This document shows, piece by piece, positions 2,628 through 46,885 of a stretch of DNA of 55,228 nucleotides. The DNA is from Desulfobacteraceae bacterium (GTDB taxonomy: Bacteria > Desulfobacterota > Desulfobacteria > Desulfobacterales > ETH-SRB1): assembly GCA_028571455.1 (NCBI GenBank), contig JAPVVG010000208.1, positions 1 through 55,228 on the forward strand. Direction: 5' to 3'. A program made the position numbers and the translations under genes. A model generated the notes under the pieces. The model was not told where the DNA came from. It made no database searches and saw nothing but the letters and a program-made list of their open reading frames with translations. Every line of letters starts with the position of its first letter. Position 1 is the first letter of the stretch.

Positions 2628-5207
2628 ATGGCCTGCAGAATCTATTCACGTCCAATTATCCCTCTTCTAATATCAATGATATTTGGAATTGTCTCTGGAT
2701 CCAGATTCCCCGGCAATTCTATCTGGGCATATTCTATAATTTTTTTATGCGCATGCTTAATAGTTGTTCAAGCAGTATATAAAAAAAACCTGTCTGTTTT
2801 GCCTTTAGTCATTTTCTTTGCATTTGGATACCTCCTCATACAACCATGGGTTGCCCCTAAGTTTCCTTCCAATCACATCATGCACTTTACAGATAACCAT
2901 CGATGGAAAATTGTCGGAGTTGTCGATAAGAATCCGGTAGCCTCTAATAATCGCTTAAGAATAATTTTACGCGTTGAAACCCTTGGCCGGGATAACAGCT
3001 CCTTTCCGGTCTTAGGAAAAATCCGCGTGACAGTAACAAAGCCTTTTCCGGATATCTTTGTCGGAGACAGACTCTCCCTAATCGGCAAAATCAGATCGAT
3101 CAGAAATTTCAACAATCCAGGTGGCTTTAATTATAGAAGATATATGGCTTTTAAAAAAATATGGGGAAGCACCTATGTCCTTGGAAAAAGGATCGTTATA
3201 TTAACCCGAAATTCAGATCCCGGGATTAATACCATTATAGAAAAAGCCCGCAATAGGATTTCCGATCTAATTGATAAGACAGGTAAGGGCAGCCAGCAGG
3301 ATGTATTAAAAGCCCTTATTGTGGGCGATAGAACCGGAATTGCAAAAAATATAGGGGCAGCGTTTAACCGGGCTGGAGTCGGCCATATCCTTGCTATATC
3401 AGGACTTCACATTGGGATTATTGCAACCGCATCGTTTATATTTTTCAGATGGCTTCTTTCTTATAGCAAACTTTTTCTATGGAATGCATGGACAAAAAAA
3501 GGGGCAGCAATTTTATCTCTATTTCCTGTAATTTTATATGGTCTGATTTCCGGGATGTCGCCATCTACCCAGAGGGCGGTAATTATGGTTACAGTCTTTC
3601 TAATGACTTTCCTGTTTGAAAGGGAACAGGACTCAATGAATAGCCTGGCAATAGCTGCAATGATTATTCTTGTCGCTTATCCCCAGTCACTTTTTTCGAT
3701 TTCATTTCAGCTTTCCTTTATAGCCGTTCTTTCAATAATATATGGCATGTCCATGACGTATAATAGCCGTATAAGTGATAGAAATATCACTAAAAAGATA
3801 TGGTTTTTTAAGGCTTTGAAAATTTTGTTTTCTTCTATATTGGTTTCAGTATTTGCAATCCTCGGAACATTGCCGGTTGTCATGTTTTATTTTAACCAGG
3901 TTTCATTGGTTGGTGTTTTTGCAAACCTGTTGATTATTCCACTTATAGGATTTGTTGCGGTGCCCTTGGGGCTGTTTTCTGTGTTTTTGTATCCAATTAG
4001 TATCTCAGGGGCTTCAGTGTTTATTAATTCAAGCGCTGCTGTATTAGGATACGCTCTTGATATTGTAAGTTTTATTGCTGAGTTGCCTTTTGCGGCAGTA
4101 AAAACCGTTACACCAAATTTTTTTGAGATTGGCTGTTATTATGTGCTGGGTTGGTCAATTTTAGGGTTAGTTGGATTTCGGAGGAAAAAGGTTGCAGGTA
4201 TAGATGGAAACAGCTCTTCTATTTCAAGAGATGCAGGGAGGAGATCGCGGAAAAATGCTGTTACCGGACGAAGAACAGCGGCAATTGTTGCTGTATTAAT
4301 CATAGTCGCAAGTTGTGCTAATACCTGTTACTGGGCATATAACAGGTTCTGGCGCAATGATCTCAGGGTTACTATTATTGATGTTGGTCAGGGGAGTGCC
4401 GCCCTTATGGAACTACCAGGGGGTCGTTGCTTTCTTATTGATGGAGGGGGCTTTTCAGACAATTCAATTTTTGATGTAGGAGCAAGAATTGTCGCCCCCT
4501 TTTTATGGCGCAAAAAGATCAAAACAATCGACACCATCGTTCTTTCTCATCCAAATGCTGATCACCTGAATGGATTATTATATATAGCGAGGCATTTTAA
4601 CGTAAAAAGATTATGGTGCAACAGCGATTCCGCAGATATAAATAGTTATCGCGAGTTTATGGAAATTATAAAGAAAAACAGGATAGAAATAATTGCATTT
4701 AAAGACATGCCCCGCAGTCATGAAATAAATGGAGCAAGGCTTGAAATTCTTCATCCCCCAAAAAATTATATTGATAAAAGAAAAAATGAAAAACAGCGAA
4801 ATCTTAACAACAATTCCCTTGTAATAAAGGTAAGTTTTGGATCAAAATCGATTCTGTTTCCCGGGGATATTATGGCTTTCGCAGAGAGGGACATTGTTGC
4901 AAGTCATGGAGATGAATTAAAAAGCACAGTCCTTATTGCCCCTCACCATGGCAGCAAGACGTCCAGCACAGCTATGTTTTTGGAAAAGGTCAAACCGGAA
5001 ATTGTAATAATATCGGCGGGCTGGAAAAATAGTTTTAGATTTCCGAATCCATCGGTTCTGAAAAGATATAATGAGAATGATTGCCGTATATTTCGTACTG
5101 ACAAAAATGGAGCAGTAGCGATATCGATTGATGGCAGAGCTCTTAAAATCAAACCTTTTATTACCGGCAGCGCCGACACCCGGGAAGATTATTCGCCGGG
5201 CCACTGA
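2628..5207 (+). CDS. comEC: DNA uptake competence protein ComEC/Rec2
   Basis: NPGGFNY, HILAISGLHIG and SFQLSF in the competence domain; C-terminal metallo-beta-lactamase domain (DVGQG, SHPNADH, PHHGS). Confidence 0.95.
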   Translation: MACRIYSRPIIPLLISMIFGIVSGSRFPGNSIWAYSIIFLCACLIVVQAVYKKNLSVLPLVIFFAFGYLLIQPWVAPKFPSNHIMHFTDNHRWKIVGVVDKNPVASNNRLRIILRVETLGRDNSSFPVLGKIRVTVTKPFPDIFVGDRLSLIGKIRSIRNFNNPGGFNYRRYMAFKKIWGSTYVLGKRIVILTRNSDPGINTIIEKARNRISDLIDKTGKGSQQDVLKALIVGDRTGIAKNIGAAFNRAGVGHILAISGLHIGIIATASFIFFRWLLSYSKLFLWNAWTKKGAAILSLFPVILYGLISGMSPSTQRAVIMVTVFLMTFLFEREQDSMNSLAIAAMIILVAYPQSLFSISFQLSFIAVLSIIYGMSMTYNSRISDRNITKKIWFFKALKILFSSILVSVFAILGTLPVVMFYFNQVSLVGVFANLLIIPLIGFVAVPLGLFSVFLYPISISGASVFINSSAAVLGYALDIVSFIAELPFAAVKTVTPNFFEIGCYYVLGWSILGLVGFRRKKVAGIDGNSSSISRDAGRRSRKNAVTGRRTAAIVAVLIIVASCANTCYWAYNRFWRNDLRVTIIDVGQGSAALMELPGGRCFLIDGGGFSDNSIFDVGARIVAPFLWRKKIKTIDTIVLSHPNADHLNGLLYIARHFNVKRLWCNSDSADINSYREFMEIIKKNRIEIIAFKDMPRSHEINGARLEILHPPKNYIDKRKNEKQRNLNNNSLVIKVSFGSKSILFPGDIMAFAERDIVASHGDELKSTVLIAPHHGSKTSSTAMFLEKVKPEIVIISAGWKNSFRFPNPSVLKRYNENDCRIFRTDKNGAVAISIDGRALKIKPFITGSADTREDYSPGH

Positions 5208-8049: not shown

Positions 8050-8116
8050 TCGGTTGAAAACTGCGAATATCGAATATCGATTACATGAATATCGAATGTC
8101 GAAGTATGGAATCGCT

Positions 8117-8227
8117 CCCGCCTGCCATTGCAAGCTCGCCCGCCAGCCAAGCCCGCCCGGCATTCGCCTGAGGCGCAGCCGATGGCGGACGGGCATGGCG
8201 AGGCGGCCTGGGGCACGAGCGGGCAGG
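8117..8227 (-). mobile_element. Nested micro-insertion (three layers, 111 bp)
   Basis: Outer 18+15 bp are the exact reverse complement of the 33-bp element at 9567-9599. The innermost ~42 bp resembles the reverse complement of 7347-7386. Removal restores ATCGCT|TCGCTC (compare GTCGCTTCGCTC at 12771). Confidence 0.75.
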
Positions 8228-8326
8228 TCGCTCTGTTTTTTATAAAATTGCCATAATAAATTCCTTCGGAATTCTGCGGTTCTGCAGTTTAAAACATACC
8301 CTGACCGTAGCTGATAGAGCACATGA

Positions 8327-8359
8327 AAAAGGCAGCTTCTGAATTAAAAGCTGCCTTTT
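8327..8359. terminator. Probable bidirectional terminator
   Basis: Perfect 12-bp stem AAAAGGCAGCTT/AAGCTGCCTTTT between convergent genes. Confidence 0.7.
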
Positions 8360-8525
8360 GACTTATTAAATTTGTAACGATTCCCAGTTAACCGGCTTTG
8401 GGTTCATCGAAAATCTGAATCCATAAACCTTGATTGTTTGTCATTCGTTATTCGATATTCATCATTCGATATTCATCATTTTTTACTTAGCTTTAAACCT
8501 TGAACCTCTGAACCTTTGAACCCCC

Positions 8526-11606: not shown

Positions 11607-11680
11607 TATCTTTAATGACCTCTAAATATTTTTATAAAATTCAGACCTCGATATTTCGTTAAAAATCGCGTCTTTTTTTA

Positions 11681-11720
11681 CCAGTATCCAGTTACAAGTA
11701 TCCAGCATCAAGCATCCAGC
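11681..11720. repeat. CCAG(T/C)AT heptamer tract abutting the tadB stop
   Basis: CCAGTAT-CCAGTTA-CAAGTAT-CCAGCAT-CAAGCAT-CCAGC. Confidence 0.7.
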
Positions 11721-12688
11721 TACACTTTAATATTAACCATCCTTCTCATCACCAGGGCGCCTAAGAGCATCAAGAACAAGGCAACGCCACACATTATTCT
11801 TCCGACCGGTTCTATAAACAATATTTTAATATATTCCGGGTTAACAATAAAAAGGGCTCCTATTATAAAAAAAGGAAGAGCCAGAAGCACATACATAGAC
11901 AATTTTCCCTCGGCAGCCAGTGTTCTGACCTTACCGAACAGTTTATATCTTTCGCGGATGAGATAAGCAATATTCTCCATAATCTCTGCAAGGTTTCCGC
12001 CGGTTTCCTGCTGCAAAATCACGGCAATCACAAAAAAGTTCAAGTCCTTGCATTCTACCCGTTGGGCAAAATTTTTCAGTGCATCGGAAACACCAAGCCC
12101 AAAATTAATTTCGTCCAGGGTCATACTGAATTCCGTACCCAATGGATCATCAAATTCATCGGCTGCCATTTTCATGCCGGTTGAAAAGGCATGACCGGCC
12201 CTCAAGGAACGGGCCATCAAGTCCAAAGACTCGGGCAACTGAGCCTGAAATTTTTTCATCCTTTGATTTTTCTTGATGTAAAGATAAAGGAAAGGAAGGC
12301 TGCCTAAACATATCGAAAAGATCACAGACAGTGTTGTCCCTATTCTCAAAAAATAAAAGCCAAGAAAGCCGGCGCCTGCAAAAAAAAGAGCGAGCAATAT
12401 GAAAAAACCTGCGGGGAACCGGGCATTTGCCAGATATCTTAATCGATCCAGGCGCTCAATCATAGTAATATGCAAAAGGATTTTATTTAACAGCGGAATT
12501 TCGCTCAACACCCGTTTTCGCACAAGATCCGGCAATTCATCTATCTGTTTGGCGGATGAAATTTTCCTGAGTTGTTTTCGAATTCTGGCACGATCGGGGT
12601 TTTTTGAGTTTCTATAGGAATAAGTAATTAATTCAATGACCGATACAACTACGATAAAAATGCCGACTGTAAGGATAAGGATATTCAT
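11720..12688 (-). CDS. tadB: Tad inner-membrane platform protein TadB
   Basis: QLPESLDLMARSLRAGH, QQETGGNLAE. Start set at MNILIL because the upstream extension is repeat-derived. Confidence 0.92.
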   Translation of the reverse strand: MNILILTVGIFIVVVSVIELITYSYRNSKNPDRARIRKQLRKISSAKQIDELPDLVRKRVLSEIPLLNKILLHITMIERLDRLRYLANARFPAGFFILLALFFAGAGFLGFYFLRIGTTLSVIFSICLGSLPFLYLYIKKNQRMKKFQAQLPESLDLMARSLRAGHAFSTGMKMAADEFDDPLGTEFSMTLDEINFGLGVSDALKNFAQRVECKDLNFFVIAVILQQETGGNLAEIMENIAYLIRERYKLFGKVRTLAAEGKLSMYVLLALPFFIIGALFIVNPEYIKILFIEPVGRIMCGVALFLMLLGALVMRRMVNIKV

Positions 12689-12728: not shown

Positions 12729-13003
12729 AGATGAACGTCCAACATCGAACATCCAACGTCGAATAATGATGTCGCTTCGCTCCTCAAATTATTATTAAAT
12801 CGAATAAAAAAACCAATACGAATATTGAAAGACTATTTTTGGTTCTTTTCAGATGTTCATCTCTTTTTCCATTCAACATTCAACATTCGATGTTCATTTT
12901 TCTTCAGTCCCTCAGACCTCAGACCTCTGACCTCTGACCTCTGTTTCTTTATCTTTTCCCATTCATCATTCGATGTTGGACGTTCGGTGTTCGATGTTCA
13001 TCT
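12729..13003. repeat. Long imperfect inverted repeat of heptamer units with an internal CCTC(A/T)GA tract, inside the tad operon
   Basis: Left AGATGAACGTCCAACATCGAACATCCAACGTCGAATAATGAT; right arm reverse complement AGATGAACATCGAACACCGAACGTCCAACATCGAATGATGAAT; five CCTC(A/T)GA units at 12910-12943. Confidence 0.85.
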
Positions 13004-43696: not shown

Positions 43697-44341
43697 ATGA
43701 ACTGGGAAGCTGTTTTTTTTGATTTTGATGGGGTTATACTTGATTCAGTTAATGTGAAAACAAAAGCCTTTGCAAAGATGTTTCGGGGATATGGGCCGGA
43801 AGTAGAAAAAAGGGTTGTTGAATATCATCTTAATAATGGTGGGGTATCACGGTTTGACAAGTTTAGATATTACTATGAGGAAATTTTGAATAAGCCTGTA
43901 AATGAAGAAATAATCAAAGGCCTTTCAGAACAATTTTCAAATCTTGTTATAGATGGAGTTTTGGCCTCGCCATTTATGCCCGGAGCGAAAGAGAGTTTAG
44001 AGAGCCTTAAAGAAAAAGGAATTCCCTGTTATATTGTCTCGGCCACACCTCATGAAGAGATAAACCTGATATTGGAGAAAAAAGAGTTGAAGGGATATTT
44101 TCTTGAAGTTCATGGCTCTCCAAGAAAAAAATGGGAAATATGCCGGGAAATTATAAATAGAAAAAAATACAACCCTCAAAACTGCTTATTTGTTGGCGAT
44201 GCCATGTCTGATTATGAGGCTGCACAAAAAAACGGTATTTGTTTTTTGGGGATTGCAGGGAACGGTGAAATTTCACCATTTTCTGATGGTACACCTGTTT
44301 CGTCAGTTGTTGCCCTGGAATATTCTGGCTTATCCCAATGA
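43697..44341 (+). CDS. HAD-family phosphatase
   Basis: FDFDGVILDS, VSAT, FVGDAMSD. Confidence 0.9.
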   Translation: MNWEAVFFDFDGVILDSVNVKTKAFAKMFRGYGPEVEKRVVEYHLNNGGVSRFDKFRYYYEEILNKPVNEEIIKGLSEQFSNLVIDGVLASPFMPGAKESLESLKEKGIPCYIVSATPHEEINLILEKKELKGYFLEVHGSPRKKWEICREIINRKKYNPQNCLFVGDAMSDYEAAQKNGICFLGIAGNGEISPFSDGTPVSSVVALEYSGLSQ

Positions 44342-44633
44342 CAGAACCGACCATCATCAGCATGGTAATAGGCATCATTGCTGGAGTTGTCGCGATTTTT
44401 GAAAATCTTTCGATATTGGCGGTATGCCGGATATGCTTGATCACAAAACAAATGGCTACCTTGCAAAACCCTTTGACACCAGCGATCTTGCCACCGGCAT
44501 TGACTGGATTTTATCCGATGAAAATCGCCATAAAGAACTTTGCATAAAGGCAAGAGGAAAGGCGGTGGCCTGTTTTGATATTGAGAAAGTAGCAAAACAG
44601 TATGAAAGTCTCTATCAGGAGATAACAGCATGA
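44338..44633 (+). pseudogene. Deletion scar: start of a membrane-protein gene joined out of frame to the 3' end of a GT4 glycosyltransferase
   Basis: MTEPTIISMVIGIIAGVVAIFENL, then from about 44409 in another frame FDIGGMPDMLDHKTNGYLAKPFD...VAKQYESLY. Confidence 0.7.
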
Positions 44634-45027
44634 AGATTGAACATCTCGGAGCAAAAAATTGCGTCACAGGCTCATGCCATCTGGTGCAGACCAGTCCGGG
44701 TTCAGCCGGCGGTGTGAATATCCTTGTGGACTGCGGCAAAGACTATGGCAATGACCCTGAGCTTGCCTTTGACCGGTTTCCTGTTTCACCACGGGATATT
44801 GGATATCTGTTTCTTACCCATGCGCATATTGATCATATCGGCAGGGTACCGGATCTGATTGATGCTGGATTCCAGGGCGAGATAATCTGCACTCACGCCA
44901 CAAAAGCGCTTTTGATTCCCATGCTGCACGATGCCCTCTCTTTTACGGATAAAAGCGACAAACAGGTTCAGCGTCTTGAAAAAGCCATTGATGAACTTTC
45001 CTGGGGCTTTGAGTATAGAAAAATAGG

Positions 45028-45111
45028 TTTAGGGTTTAGGGTTTAGGGTTTAGGGTGTAGGGTGTAGGGTTTAGGGTTTAGGGTTTAGGGTGTAGGGTTT
45101 AGGGCATAGGG
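45028..45111 (+). repeat. 12-unit telomere-like heptamer array (8 TTTAGGG, 3 TGTAGGG, 1 CATAGGG)
   Basis: Counted directly; complementary AAACCCT-type units follow at about 45138-45161. Confidence 0.97.
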
Positions 45112-45188
45112 ATATTAGTGACTTTTTCTGTTCTCTTAAACCTTAGACCTTAAACCCTGAATTAGTTTAGGGACGAGGAGGAAATGAA

Positions 45189-45542
45189 ATGGGGAAATTT
45201 CAGGAATTGAGAGTATGGCAGAAGAGTAAAGATTTGGCAGTATACATTTATCAGGTCACTGGAAAGGGTCAATTTGCAAAGGATTACAGTTTGAAAGATC
45301 AGATTCGCCGAGCTGCTGTTTCTATTCCGAGCAATATAGCAGAGGGGGATGAATTAGACACGAATAAACAAGCCGTTAAGTTCTTTTATATCTCCAAAGG
45401 ATCTTGTGCAGAGGTCTTAACTCAGGCAATTATCGCTTTGGAGATAGGCTACCTCGAGAAAAAGGATTTCCTGCATATTGAGCAGGAATGCCAAGCTATA
45501 TCGGGGATGCTGACGCGGTTGATTCAGGTGCGAAGTAAATAA
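45189..45542 (+). CDS. Four-helix-bundle protein (23S rRNA IVP / Avd-like family)
   Basis: FQELRVWQKS, DQIRRAAVSIPSNIAEG, SKGSCAE; GAGGAGG RBS. Confidence 0.93.
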   Translation: MGKFQELRVWQKSKDLAVYIYQVTGKGQFAKDYSLKDQIRRAAVSIPSNIAEGDELDTNKQAVKFFYISKGSCAEVLTQAIIALEIGYLEKKDFLHIEQECQAISGMLTRLIQVRSK

Positions 45543-45547
45543 AGAGA

Positions 45548-45636
45548 AGGGTATAGGGTGTGTGGGCTATAGGAGGAACACTGACTTCTTCTGTTTCCTG
45601 AGCCTTAAGCCTTAAACCCTGAACCCTGAACCTTGA
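45548..45636. repeat. Second G-rich/linker/C-rich heptamer module, a direct repeat of 45028-45161
   Basis: AGGGTATAGGGTGT..., linker TGACTTCTTCTGTT (TGACTTTTTCTGTT upstream), then GAGCCTT-AAGCCTT-AAACCCT-GAACCCT-GAACCTT. Confidence 0.85.
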
Positions 45637-45943
45637 GAAGGCGGCATGTGTACCGGCGGTCGTATCCTTGATCACCTGGAGTGCGGCCTTGATGATCCCA
45701 AAAATGACATATTTTTTGTGAGATATCAGGCAAAAGGAACCTTGGGACGGCGCATTGTTGATAAAAAAGTTCCAGTTAAAGCAGGCATCCATACCCTTAC
45801 AGGATATTCAGCCCATGCGGATCAAAGCATGCTGGTCAATTGGGTAAAATCCATGCCTGAACCTCCGGGAGAGATAAGGCTGGTGCATGGGGAAGCAAAG
45901 GCAATGCAGGCGTTGAGCGGGCTTTTAAATAACGTCCGAAAAC

Positions 45944-46408
45944 ATGGATATTGATAAAGCGGGAGAAAAGATGAATCTGCCTGAGATCGGTGATATAATA
46001 ACCACAAAAGAGGCCTTGGAATTATGCCGATATTTCGGGCTGGATTATTTGATTGAACGGATTGAATCCGATCCGGAAAGGTATAAGGACTGGAAGTTTG
46101 ACGGCTGCTCAGGCCTGCCGGATCAAGTAATGGGTTTTTTTACGGGCTGTGATTGGAAGGACATTACTTTCAAATGTTGTTTGCCGCACGATCTTTGTTA
46201 TGGTTATGGAGACCCGGGGAACGATATCGAGAGAAAGCGGGTGGACCTGAAGTTTTACAGCGATCTGGTGACTAAGGCAGGTATGAAAAAATGGTGCGCC
46301 TCGGCCTTTCTTGCAGGGGTGCGGATAGGTGGAGCGGAAGCATTCGGGCTGTCATTTTCATGGGGCTTTGCTATTTTGCCACAGATTTGCACAGATAGGC
46401 ACAGATAA
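45944..46408 (+). CDS. Hypothetical protein with a prokaryotic phospholipase A2-like motif (start may be 45971)
   Basis: DGCS...CCLPHDLCYGYG...RKRVDLKF; the last codons are supplied by CACAGAT repeats. Confidence 0.55.
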   Translation: MDIDKAGEKMNLPEIGDIITTKEALELCRYFGLDYLIERIESDPERYKDWKFDGCSGLPDQVMGFFTGCDWKDITFKCCLPHDLCYGYGDPGNDIERKRVDLKFYSDLVTKAGMKKWCASAFLAGVRIGGAEAFGLSFSWGFAILPQICTDRHR

Positions 46409-46419
46409 GTTTAAATACA

Positions 46420-46885
46420 GTAACTACTTAGGCACAGAGGGGCAAAGGCACAGTGGCACAAAGAAAAATAAAAACGTATAGAGATTTGCAGGTCTGGCAA
46501 AAATCAATGACTTTAGTTGCTGAAATATATAAGATTTCTAAAGGATTCCCCAAGGATGAAGTGTACGGATTAACCTCTCAAATGAGACGGTGTGCGATTT
46601 CAATTCCCAGCAATATGGCGGAAGGTTATGGCCGAAATTCGACTAATGATTATCTTCGTTTCCTGCGAATTGCAACAGGTTCTCTATATGAATTGCAAAC
46701 CCAGATAGAAATTTCTATGAACCTGTATTATTTGAACAGAGACGAATTCGATAAGCTATCTGAATTAAGCCGAGAGATAGAACGAATGCTTAGCAGCTTA
46801 ATCAGGAAGTTAAGCGGCAAATAGGCAAGACAACTATGTGCCTCTGTGCCTTTGCCCCTCTGCCCCTCTGTGCCTGAGTAGTTAC
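46420..46885. mobile_element. Inverted-repeat-bounded cassette carrying a four-helix-bundle gene
   Basis: Left GTAACTACTTAGGCACAGAGGGGCAAAGGCACAG; right CTGTGCCTTTGCCCCTC[TGCCCCTC]TGTGCCTGAGTAGTTAC, the reverse complement with one extra 8-bp unit and one mismatch. Confidence 0.75.
46453..46824 (+). CDS. Four-helix-bundle protein (23S rRNA IVP / Avd-like family)
   Basis: YRDLQVWQKS, FPKDEVYGLTSQMRRCAISIPSNMAEG, GSLYELQTQ. Confidence 0.93.
   Translation: MAQRKIKTYRDLQVWQKSMTLVAEIYKISKGFPKDEVYGLTSQMRRCAISIPSNMAEGYGRNSTNDYLRFLRIATGSLYELQTQIEISMNLYYLNRDEFDKLSELSREIERMLSSLIRKLSGK

Follow-up and report, generated by a model that had tools for sequence, protein, structure and literature searches.

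The closest described relatives of the element reported here are the intervening sequences (IVSs) of 23S rRNA genes that carry an open reading frame (ORF). In Coxiella burnetii, the IVS in helix 45 holds an ORF for the S23p protein inside a 28-bp terminal stem and undergoes RNase III excision; three tandem heptamers, variable in number, precede the S23p start codon, and the element is regarded as selfish (PMC4990558). The same paper describes S23p/IVP as a pentamer and the family as one without assigned function (PMC4990558). A conserved IVP motif has been quoted as GxxRxxxSxxxNxxE, and IVP genes are reported inside cas operons (PMC3936711). Tandem heptamers are also described from two Xanthomonas species, where 186 and 183 GGGAATC arrays form 70 and 75 convergent inverted pairs; the main text of that paper names no associated gene and holds no match for 23S, S23, intervening or helix bundle (PMC4692102). 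Here we analyze a 55,228-nt stretch of DNA (the window; contig JAPVVG010000208.1, assembly GCA_028571455.1, Desulfobacteraceae bacterium) in which an IVP gene lies between periodic, inverted arms inside a broken metallo-β-lactamase (MBL)/β-CASP gene. It is a cassette of the rRNA intervening-sequence type: one IVP gene with its own ribosome-binding site and arms of tandem heptamers. The reading we favor, with a probability of roughly 60%, is that of a cassette that moves as DNA and has, for arms, the cognate repeats of its own protein, the binding of arm by protein being putative. Cassettes of this kind are widespread and apparently undescribed; a literature search by family names and repeat terms, supplements not covered, found no description of inverted periodic arms.

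How does this cassette compare with an rRNA IVS? It shares with the ORF-bearing 23S rRNA IVSs of C. burnetii and Leptospira the protein family, the placement of the ORF in an inverted-repeat stem and the heptamers 5' of the start codon. The terminal stem of an rRNA IVS has its counterpart in a predicted 631-nt fold, in which the first G-rich units pair across the gene with the last C-rich units (z -7.5, 20 shuffles), and in an inverted-arm score of 57. Unlike an rRNA IVS, the cassette sits in a protein-coding gene, disrupting it, and not in a 23S/16S helix; its two arms consist of long periodic arrays, and a complete hairpin module makes up each flank; and the genome holds about 15 copies with different units together with hundreds of gene-less arrays. 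Rfam gave no family match, rRNA included, anywhere in the window.

The cassette replaces the middle of its host gene. By Pfam, its flanks are the two ends of a single MBL/β-CASP/RMMBL gene: a 5' fragment at 44630-45017 (+ strand, codons 1 to ~130, Lactamase_B positions 5-93 of 196) and a 3' fragment at 45637-45954 (+ strand, ORF from the ATG at 45646, Beta-Casp positions 84-120 of 120 plus RMMBL). Alignment to intact orthologues of 420 and 421 amino acids (aa), which come from the congener L013 and from L003, a genome of the same family, shows that ~aa 1-131 and ~aa 325-420 are kept, while ~193 central codons (~580 bp) are gone and ~610 bp of cassette stand in their place. The halves lie on the same strand and in the right order, in different frames; the frame of the 5' fragment continues into the repeat array and meets a stop at 45046, and the genome contains no second copy of the 3' part. 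The MBL gene carrying this cassette is dead.

Both intact and broken alleles of this gene exist in nature. A 28-nt probe taken from directly left of the junction and searched against metagenome contigs gave 12 matches on 11 contigs, eight of them intact (on 7 contigs) and four disrupted. In the disrupted contigs (L271, L275, L277, L280), MBL is broken at the identical nucleotide (GAGTATA/GAAA...) and a related cassette follows. Here, GAGTATA, ending at 45017, represents the last bases homologous to intact MBL genes, and the inserted DNA begins with GAAAAATA (45018-45025, + strand); past the same junction, the four metagenome contigs read GAAAGAAC. Their cassette has ~3 heptamers (AAGGTGT AGGGTGT AGGGTTT) before the ribosome-binding site and start codon, and its gene start is 70-73% identical to ours, against 90% for the MBL part. 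Its IVP gene is itself split by a Y1 transposase gene, and the right junction of L271 differs, falling almost at the end of the MBL gene. In a tree built from the 388-nt MBL 5' part, this allele and the L271 group are split with a support of 0.94, and intact alleles stand on both sides. This suggests either two insertions at one MBL site or exchange by recombination; because the stretch is short and the MBL gene has paralogues, independent insertion at the same site is not established. Site-specific targeting may be at work, given two different cassettes at the same MBL nucleotide in apparently non-sister lineages. One congener (G003) holds a broken and an intact MBL copy, and its syntenic copy is broken 7 bp further on, where it adjoins a Y1 transposase gene.

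Orthologous sites tell of presence and absence elsewhere in the genome. Forty cassettes were taken from five congeners and their flanks mapped onto this genome, where eight could be aligned to orthologous sites. At five of the eight the gene and both arms are absent (one of the five alignments is incomplete), two hold unrelated gene-less hairpin modules instead, and at one, flanked on either side by a tRNA gene, what remains is the downstream arm and the 3' half of the IVP gene. A further cassette, that of C63, is orthologous in three genomes. In these sequence comparisons, the cassette is shown to be a discrete DNA unit, present or absent at orthologous sites, whose arms travel with the gene. 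The tRNA-flanked remnant (C132, ~3500-3900) is not listed by the PF05635 search of the genome; the congener G006 has the full cassette at this site (L052).

A cassette of another subfamily replaces aa 35-110 of a Y1 transposase in one record (L028) and aa 34-147 in another (L031); the left junctions are identical and the right junctions differ. A fixed left junction with a variable right one, as in the MBL and Y1 cases, fits insertion followed by erosion of adjoining DNA, and several insertions come with deletions. At two further loci, L018 (G002:C369) and L055 (G003:C179), the cassette has replaced the ribosome-binding site of the downstream host gene, in L055 together with the start codon, and an AGGAGG box at the cassette end now precedes that gene. 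Homologues with an identity of 59-76% are present in Desulfobacterota, cyanobacteria, Bacteroidales, Nitrospirota and ANME-1 archaea, a distribution across several phyla that fits horizontal spread. Three ANME-1/Methanophagales records (L081, L102, L127) hold IVP homologues 66-70% identical, with heptamer arms in L081 (score 41) and without them in L102 (score 17); the archaeal homologues may reflect cross-domain transfer in shared seep habitats, with which they fit.

Are such arms a property of the family? PF05635 has 15 matches in this genome, 12 of them above the cut-off, and every match with readable flanks has tandem units of 7-8 nt upstream and their reverse complement downstream, the unit differing by subfamily (GGCACAGA, GGATTAG, GGCTGTTA, GGTCGAGT, GGGATTGA and others). 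A score based on 7-mers shared between flanks was too noisy (110 of 2492 other ORFs scored at least 8), and a test based on Tandem Repeats Finder (TRF) was used instead. By this test, 11 of the 13 testable matches, namely those with both flanks present, lie between inverted arrays of one and the same unit, compared with 9 of 2403 other ORFs and, among small ORFs, 3 of 820; the remaining two of the 13 are also armed, as judged by eye. Three matches are truncated to 26-34 codons but have kept both arms, and three different loci (C208:46453, C142 and C149) have arms, termini and gene in common. The genome further contains 1154 non-redundant arrays of period 6-9, with 145 inverted nearby pairs, most less than 200 bp apart. 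Among the 1121 arrays away from IVP genes, 194 have exactly one of the 19 arm units; with shuffled units, the count averaged 10.5 and reached at most 56. Gene-less arrays of the same units are scattered in the genome, and truncated cassettes exist.

The same pattern extends to a collection of 126 cassettes, obtained from 129 by removal of three antisense duplicates; counts of arm score and arm polarity predate that removal and the count of G.U pairs postdates it. Inverted-arm scores of at least 30 were found in 103 of 122 cassettes versus 18 of 122 when the downstream flank was reversed as a control. The G-rich arm comes first in 88 of the 103 and the C-rich arm in 2. This polarity is identical on both strands and therefore uninformative on gene orientation. 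For 63 cassettes of this protein subfamily, drawn from many phyla, the unit consensus is GGYNNAR; the phase was set on GG, so the informative positions are 3, 6 and 7 only. The more similar two proteins are in sequence identity, the more 6-mers their arms share (rho 0.50; none of 500 permutations attained this value). Direct repeats between the flanks, in the order module-gene-module, scored at least 30 in 27 of 119 cassettes, including L094, L032, L056 and L099.

The original prediction, made from the letters of this DNA, had proposed a one-gene mobile cassette with hairpin flanks as part of it, put in place of the middle of the MBL/β-CASP gene. The empty orthologous sites, the intact and disrupted MBL alleles and the ~193 missing codons bear this out, as do the checks it had suggested on flank enrichment around related genes, on unit sequence against protein similarity and on intact MBL orthologues. 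Its description of the arms was likewise accurate: TRF and sequence agree on some 12 TTTAGGG-type units, a linker and C-rich units upstream of the gene, on a recurrence of the same module downstream and, by prediction, on modules that fold on themselves and outer arms that pair across the gene.

In detail, the ~610-bp cassette (45026-45636) starts with a hairpin module, in which a G-rich array, a 14-nt linker and C-rich units follow one another, and continues with the gene and a second, direct module, all on the + strand. The G-rich array of ~12 GGTTTAG/GGTGTAG units occupies 45026-45112; TRF assigns 45026-45104 a period of 7, 11.3 copies, 94% matches, a score of 137 and the unit GGTTTAG (equivalent to TTTAGGG), and the degenerate unit GCATAGGG after this span brings the total to ~12. 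The first linker, TGACTTTTTCTGTT, lies at 45119-45132 and is followed at 45133-45161 by inner C-rich units complementary to the array (CTTAAAC, CTTAGAC, CTTAAAC, CCTGAA; TRF, CTTAAAC x3.1 at 45135-45156). Downstream of the gene, G-rich units read from the sequence (GGGTATA, GGGTGTGT, GGGCTATAGGAGG; 45546-45576) are followed by the second linker, TGACTTCTTCTGTT (45582-45595), and by the outer C-rich arm (CCTGAG, CCTTAAG, CCTTAAA, CCCTGAA, CCCTGAA, CCTTGA; 45596-45636), in which TRF finds AGCCTTA x2.1 at 45601-45615 and AACCCTG x3.1 at 45615-45636. The two linkers are the sole two occurrences in the 2.93-Mb genome, and the modules are thus direct repeats of each other, with a direct-repeat score of 61. 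In the predicted folds, the 3' units of the array pair with 45133-45161 and its 5' units with 45596-45636. The upstream module is predicted to fold at -51.2 kcal/mol (z -6.5; an equally good fold in 0 of 200 shuffles) and the downstream module at -35.1 kcal/mol (z -2.7; 1 of 200).

The gene between the modules (45189-45542, + strand) is intact and encodes a 117-aa four-helix bundle. A putative Shine-Dalgarno sequence, GAGGAGG, read at 45175-45181 (+ strand), lies 7 nt 5' of its ATG. The protein matches PF05635 (23S_rRNA_IVP) with an E value of 2e-35 and 121.5 bits (cut-off 33.8) over profile positions 1-105 of 106, TIGR02436 with 117.5 bits (cut-off 24) and the subfamily profile NF008912 with 128.8 bits (cut-off 124). 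The RxxxSxxxNxxE part of the family motif is present in the translation as RAAVSIPSNIAE, and the leading G is not at the published spacing. The nearest solved relative is XCC0516 (PDB 2gsc; 2gsc_A, E 9e-15), an entry with 5 chains, and by homology to 2gsc_A the 117-aa protein would form a homopentameric toroid. PADLOC places it in no defence family. The IVP family is a large one, present in 70 of 121 sampled genomes of the phylum Desulfobacterota.

The heptamers of Xanthomonas provide a second comparison. The arrays of this genome resemble the GGGAATC arrays in being G-rich tandem heptamers with conserved and variable positions, mostly intergenic and with the G-rich arm first (PMC4692102). Unlike the arrays as published, GGGAATC-type units are here seen flanking an IVP gene in three Xanthomonadales genomes. 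X. euroxanthea, X. arboricola and one Luteimonas each have exactly one PF05635 gene, which is preceded by the end of a biotin-carrier gene and followed by the start of a biotin carboxylase gene (by Pfam in X. euroxanthea, from the flanks in the others), with GGGAATC-type units upstream and their complement downstream. The GGGAATC doublet GGGAATCGGGAATC occurs 208, 169 and 73 times in these genomes, respectively, and a control pattern 0 times.

What could join a small helix bundle to so many repeats? REPIN/RAYT systems consist of REP doublets and their Y1 transposase (RAYT). The present cassette is similar in that its gene lies between inverted copies of a repeat that is also scattered as gene-less hairpins. 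It differs in encoding a 117-aa helix bundle without known catalytic site and not a Y1 (HUH) transposase, in having tandem arrays and not single palindromes, and in that the Y1 genes of this genome are flanked by other repeats. Foldback elements and miniature inverted-repeat transposable elements likewise have terminal inverted repeats built of short tandem units and internally deleted, gene-less derivatives; unlike them, this is a bacterial element embedded in operons, for which no transposase and no target-site duplication were found.

We propose the following course for a mobile cassette. It would be promoterless and depend for its transcription on read-through from the host operon, given the shared orientation of cassettes and neighbors and a scan in which no promoter-like (or terminator-like) site flanked the four-helix-bundle gene. 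The arms would be the cognate recognition repeats of the cassette's own pentameric nucleic-acid-binding protein; this role is proposed because the GGYNNAR positions are conserved across phyla and because the arm unit matches dispersed arrays within one genome, in the manner of RAYT/REPIN. Spread and loss would proceed via the hairpin arms at the DNA level, with adjoining target DNA eroded after insertion. The two direct modules may be the leftover of a single cross-over of a circle, consisting of module and gene, into a resident module. The 12-unit TTTAGGG array would represent a local expansion by slippage or unequal exchange, which explains the 12-unit and 3-unit alleles more simply than templated synthesis. 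A tentative extension, in our view possible but on balance doubtful, is that IVP proteins are the missing trans-acting partners of bacterial heptamer repeats, each subfamily reading a particular 7-base word (GGYNNAR in the present case and GGGAATC in that of Xanthomonas), as a non-enzymatic, nucleic-acid-binding pentamer in a system analogous to RAYT/REPIN, selfish or domesticated. Under this extension, and with the same reserve, a gene between inverted word arrays would sustain, or exploit, hundreds of gene-less hairpins.

The main alternative, or possibly an additional role, is processing at the RNA level: the arms would form a stem cut by RNase III to free the IVP mRNA from a polycistronic RNA, and mobility of the DNA would be incidental. 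We consider it unlikely as a replacement for the mobile cassette, and still the best of the alternatives. The S23p ORF of Coxiella, with its RNase III-cut 28-bp stem and variable heptamers before the start codon, is a precedent (PMC4990558). IVP genes share the strand of their upstream neighbor in 93 of 102 cases and of their downstream neighbor in 87 of 101, the predicted 631-nt fold encloses the gene, and in this cassette alone the non-Watson-Crick transition pairs between arms are 20 G.U-type to 2. Stems under RNA-folding selection are normally far more tolerant of G.U. Over 100 armed cassettes, however, mismatches that would be G.U-type in the sense RNA show no excess over A.C (314 versus 309), with an excess of G.U in 38 cassettes, of A.C in 36 and ties in 26; maintenance of the stem by RNA-folding selection is therefore not generally supported. 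Moreover, the MBL host gene is destroyed, so that processing could not rescue it, and fixed, conserved unit bases are needless for a stem.

Several points weigh against a mobile cassette with cognate arms. No target-site duplication is evident at five filled/empty junctions or at the termini of multi-copy cassettes, no enzyme able to move the cassette was identified, and a 117-aa helix bundle is an implausible recombinase. A GxxExxY nuclease was not found in the 97%-complete genome. The 80 distant loci are the top-ranking ones among at least 500 relatives, all of one subfamily, and relatives are not independent; the correlation between protein and arms can be explained by common descent alone; the control of the enrichment test consists of crude ORFs; and the length of the 12-unit array depends on a single assembly. 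Arrays vastly outnumber IVP genes. Finally, 0 of 80 loci chosen for a (GGGAATC)x4 array hold an IVP ORF, so that arrays can exist and spread without an adjoining gene and gene-adjoining arrays are a small minority.

These last observations favor a passive association, in which the heptamer hairpins would be an independent class of repeats, found genome-wide and arising by slippage at gene junctions, between which IVP genes merely gather or for which they have a preference. The arrays may then hold regulatory, terminator-like or quadruplex roles, and gene and arms would not be one element. In this genome, the 1154 arrays face 15 IVP matches and gene-less hairpins show the cassette-like, G-rich-first polarity (74 versus 4), and the Xanthomonas arrays were published without any IVP gene in the text (PMC4692102). 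Against it, the arms are absent along with the gene at the five empty orthologous sites, the cassettes at C208:46453, C142 and C149 have common arms, termini and gene, the arms co-vary with the protein across phyla, and the enrichment is 11/13 versus 9/2403. We hold this explanation to be quite improbable, more so than RNA processing.

An assembly artefact or chimera, joining unrelated DNA at a low-complexity repeat, is far less probable again. This is a draft metagenome-type assembly of 267 contigs, and IVP genes stand at the ends of three of them (C214, C255, C26); cassette repeats therefore do break assemblies. Nevertheless, the MBL halves on either side of the cassette are correctly ordered and share a strand, a related cassette follows the identical left junction in four metagenome contigs, and 0.98 of the words sampled from 44700-45900 are present in one sequencing run, maybe that of the source sample. 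Sixteen runs that hold at least half of the sampled words were counted as no evidence either way.

Least credible of all is a telomere-like or retroelement origin, by reiterative reverse transcription of TTTAGGG with an Avd-like protein as cofactor: the family is distantly related to the Avd of diversity-generating retroelements (DGRs) and two RVT_1 matches occur in the genome, but these lie on other contigs (C76, C140) and none on the cassette contig, the units vary between cassettes and fit a subfamily consensus, and related alleles at the same junction have 3 units only. A four-helix-bundle fold family is shared with DGR Avd, and a neighboring paralogue is matched weakly (bAvd E 5e-7 in Pfam; NF033474 28.2 bits, cut-off 80), while the NCBIfam profile NF033474 gives no match for the 117-aa protein. 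Unlike in a DGR, there is no adjacent reverse transcriptase in the window; template and variable repeats were not searched for. Unlike a telomere, the array is internal to a 55-kb contig, between gene halves. The original prediction had stressed the telomere repeat and, as speculation, templated synthesis, and neither idea is supported: TTTAGGG is one instance of GGYNNAR, its tandem run is found at a single locus of the genome, this cassette, and the resemblance is a coincidence.

Other features of the neighborhood and the genome deserve mention. Upstream of the MBL gene, the last ~70 codons of a group-1 glycosyltransferase are left at 44338-44633, and the syntenic place in G003 holds a complete 414-aa gene (L002:1126-2370); the neighborhood has therefore been hit by several deletions. 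Downstream, an ORF at 45944-46408 has a weak match, below cut-off, to prokaryotic phospholipase A2, and the translation of its 3' end runs through a tandem array of CACAGATAGG type (46375-46407). A second IVP cassette follows at 46420-46885 (gene 46453-46824), with an upstream arm of GGCACAGA type and downstream TGTGCCTC units; its outer termini are GTAACTACTTAGG and CCTGAGTAGTTAC, and the copies on C142 and C149, which have the same termini, are truncated. Gene-less heptamer clusters lie at 8064-8522, 11679-11724 and 12733-12999 (CGAATAT/ATTCGAT, GAACATC/TTCGATG and others). Arrays of the AACATCG unit family number 55 in the genome; an IVP gene carrying this unit was not found in the assembly. 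A conserved element of ~280 bp between GAAATTG and AATTTCT arrays is present in three copies (C159:20472-20789, C216:26464-26785, C201:1554-1794) that share an ORF-like stretch. There are 13 Y1_Tnp (IS200/RAYT-like) matches, on C125:14287-15327, C162:20383-21009, C169, C3, C27 and C135, and several of these ORFs, of 330-380 aa, have their own inverted palindromes (GGGGACG-type boxes; GTAGGTTGGGTTGAGGAACGAAACCCAAC on C162). The Y1/RAYT genes were considered as a mobilizer of the cassettes and rejected, their flanking palindromes being different from, and unrelated to, the heptamer arrays.

What does this locus add? New here are the disruption of a gene with intact and broken alleles, the recurrent junction, the 3- versus 12-unit arm, the G.U test and the unit consensus. 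Evidence at the population level comes from alleles with and without the disruption, from the recurrence of one junction and from an array that is expanding; taken together, these show a cassette that behaves as mobile DNA and can kill a gene. Annotators should be aware that such arrays are open to confusion with telomere-like or CRISPR-like repeats and that IVP genes in operons and cas loci may be passengers. More broadly, the locus ties together two puzzles: the IVP/S23p family, to which no function has been assigned, and the heptamer repeats of bacteria.

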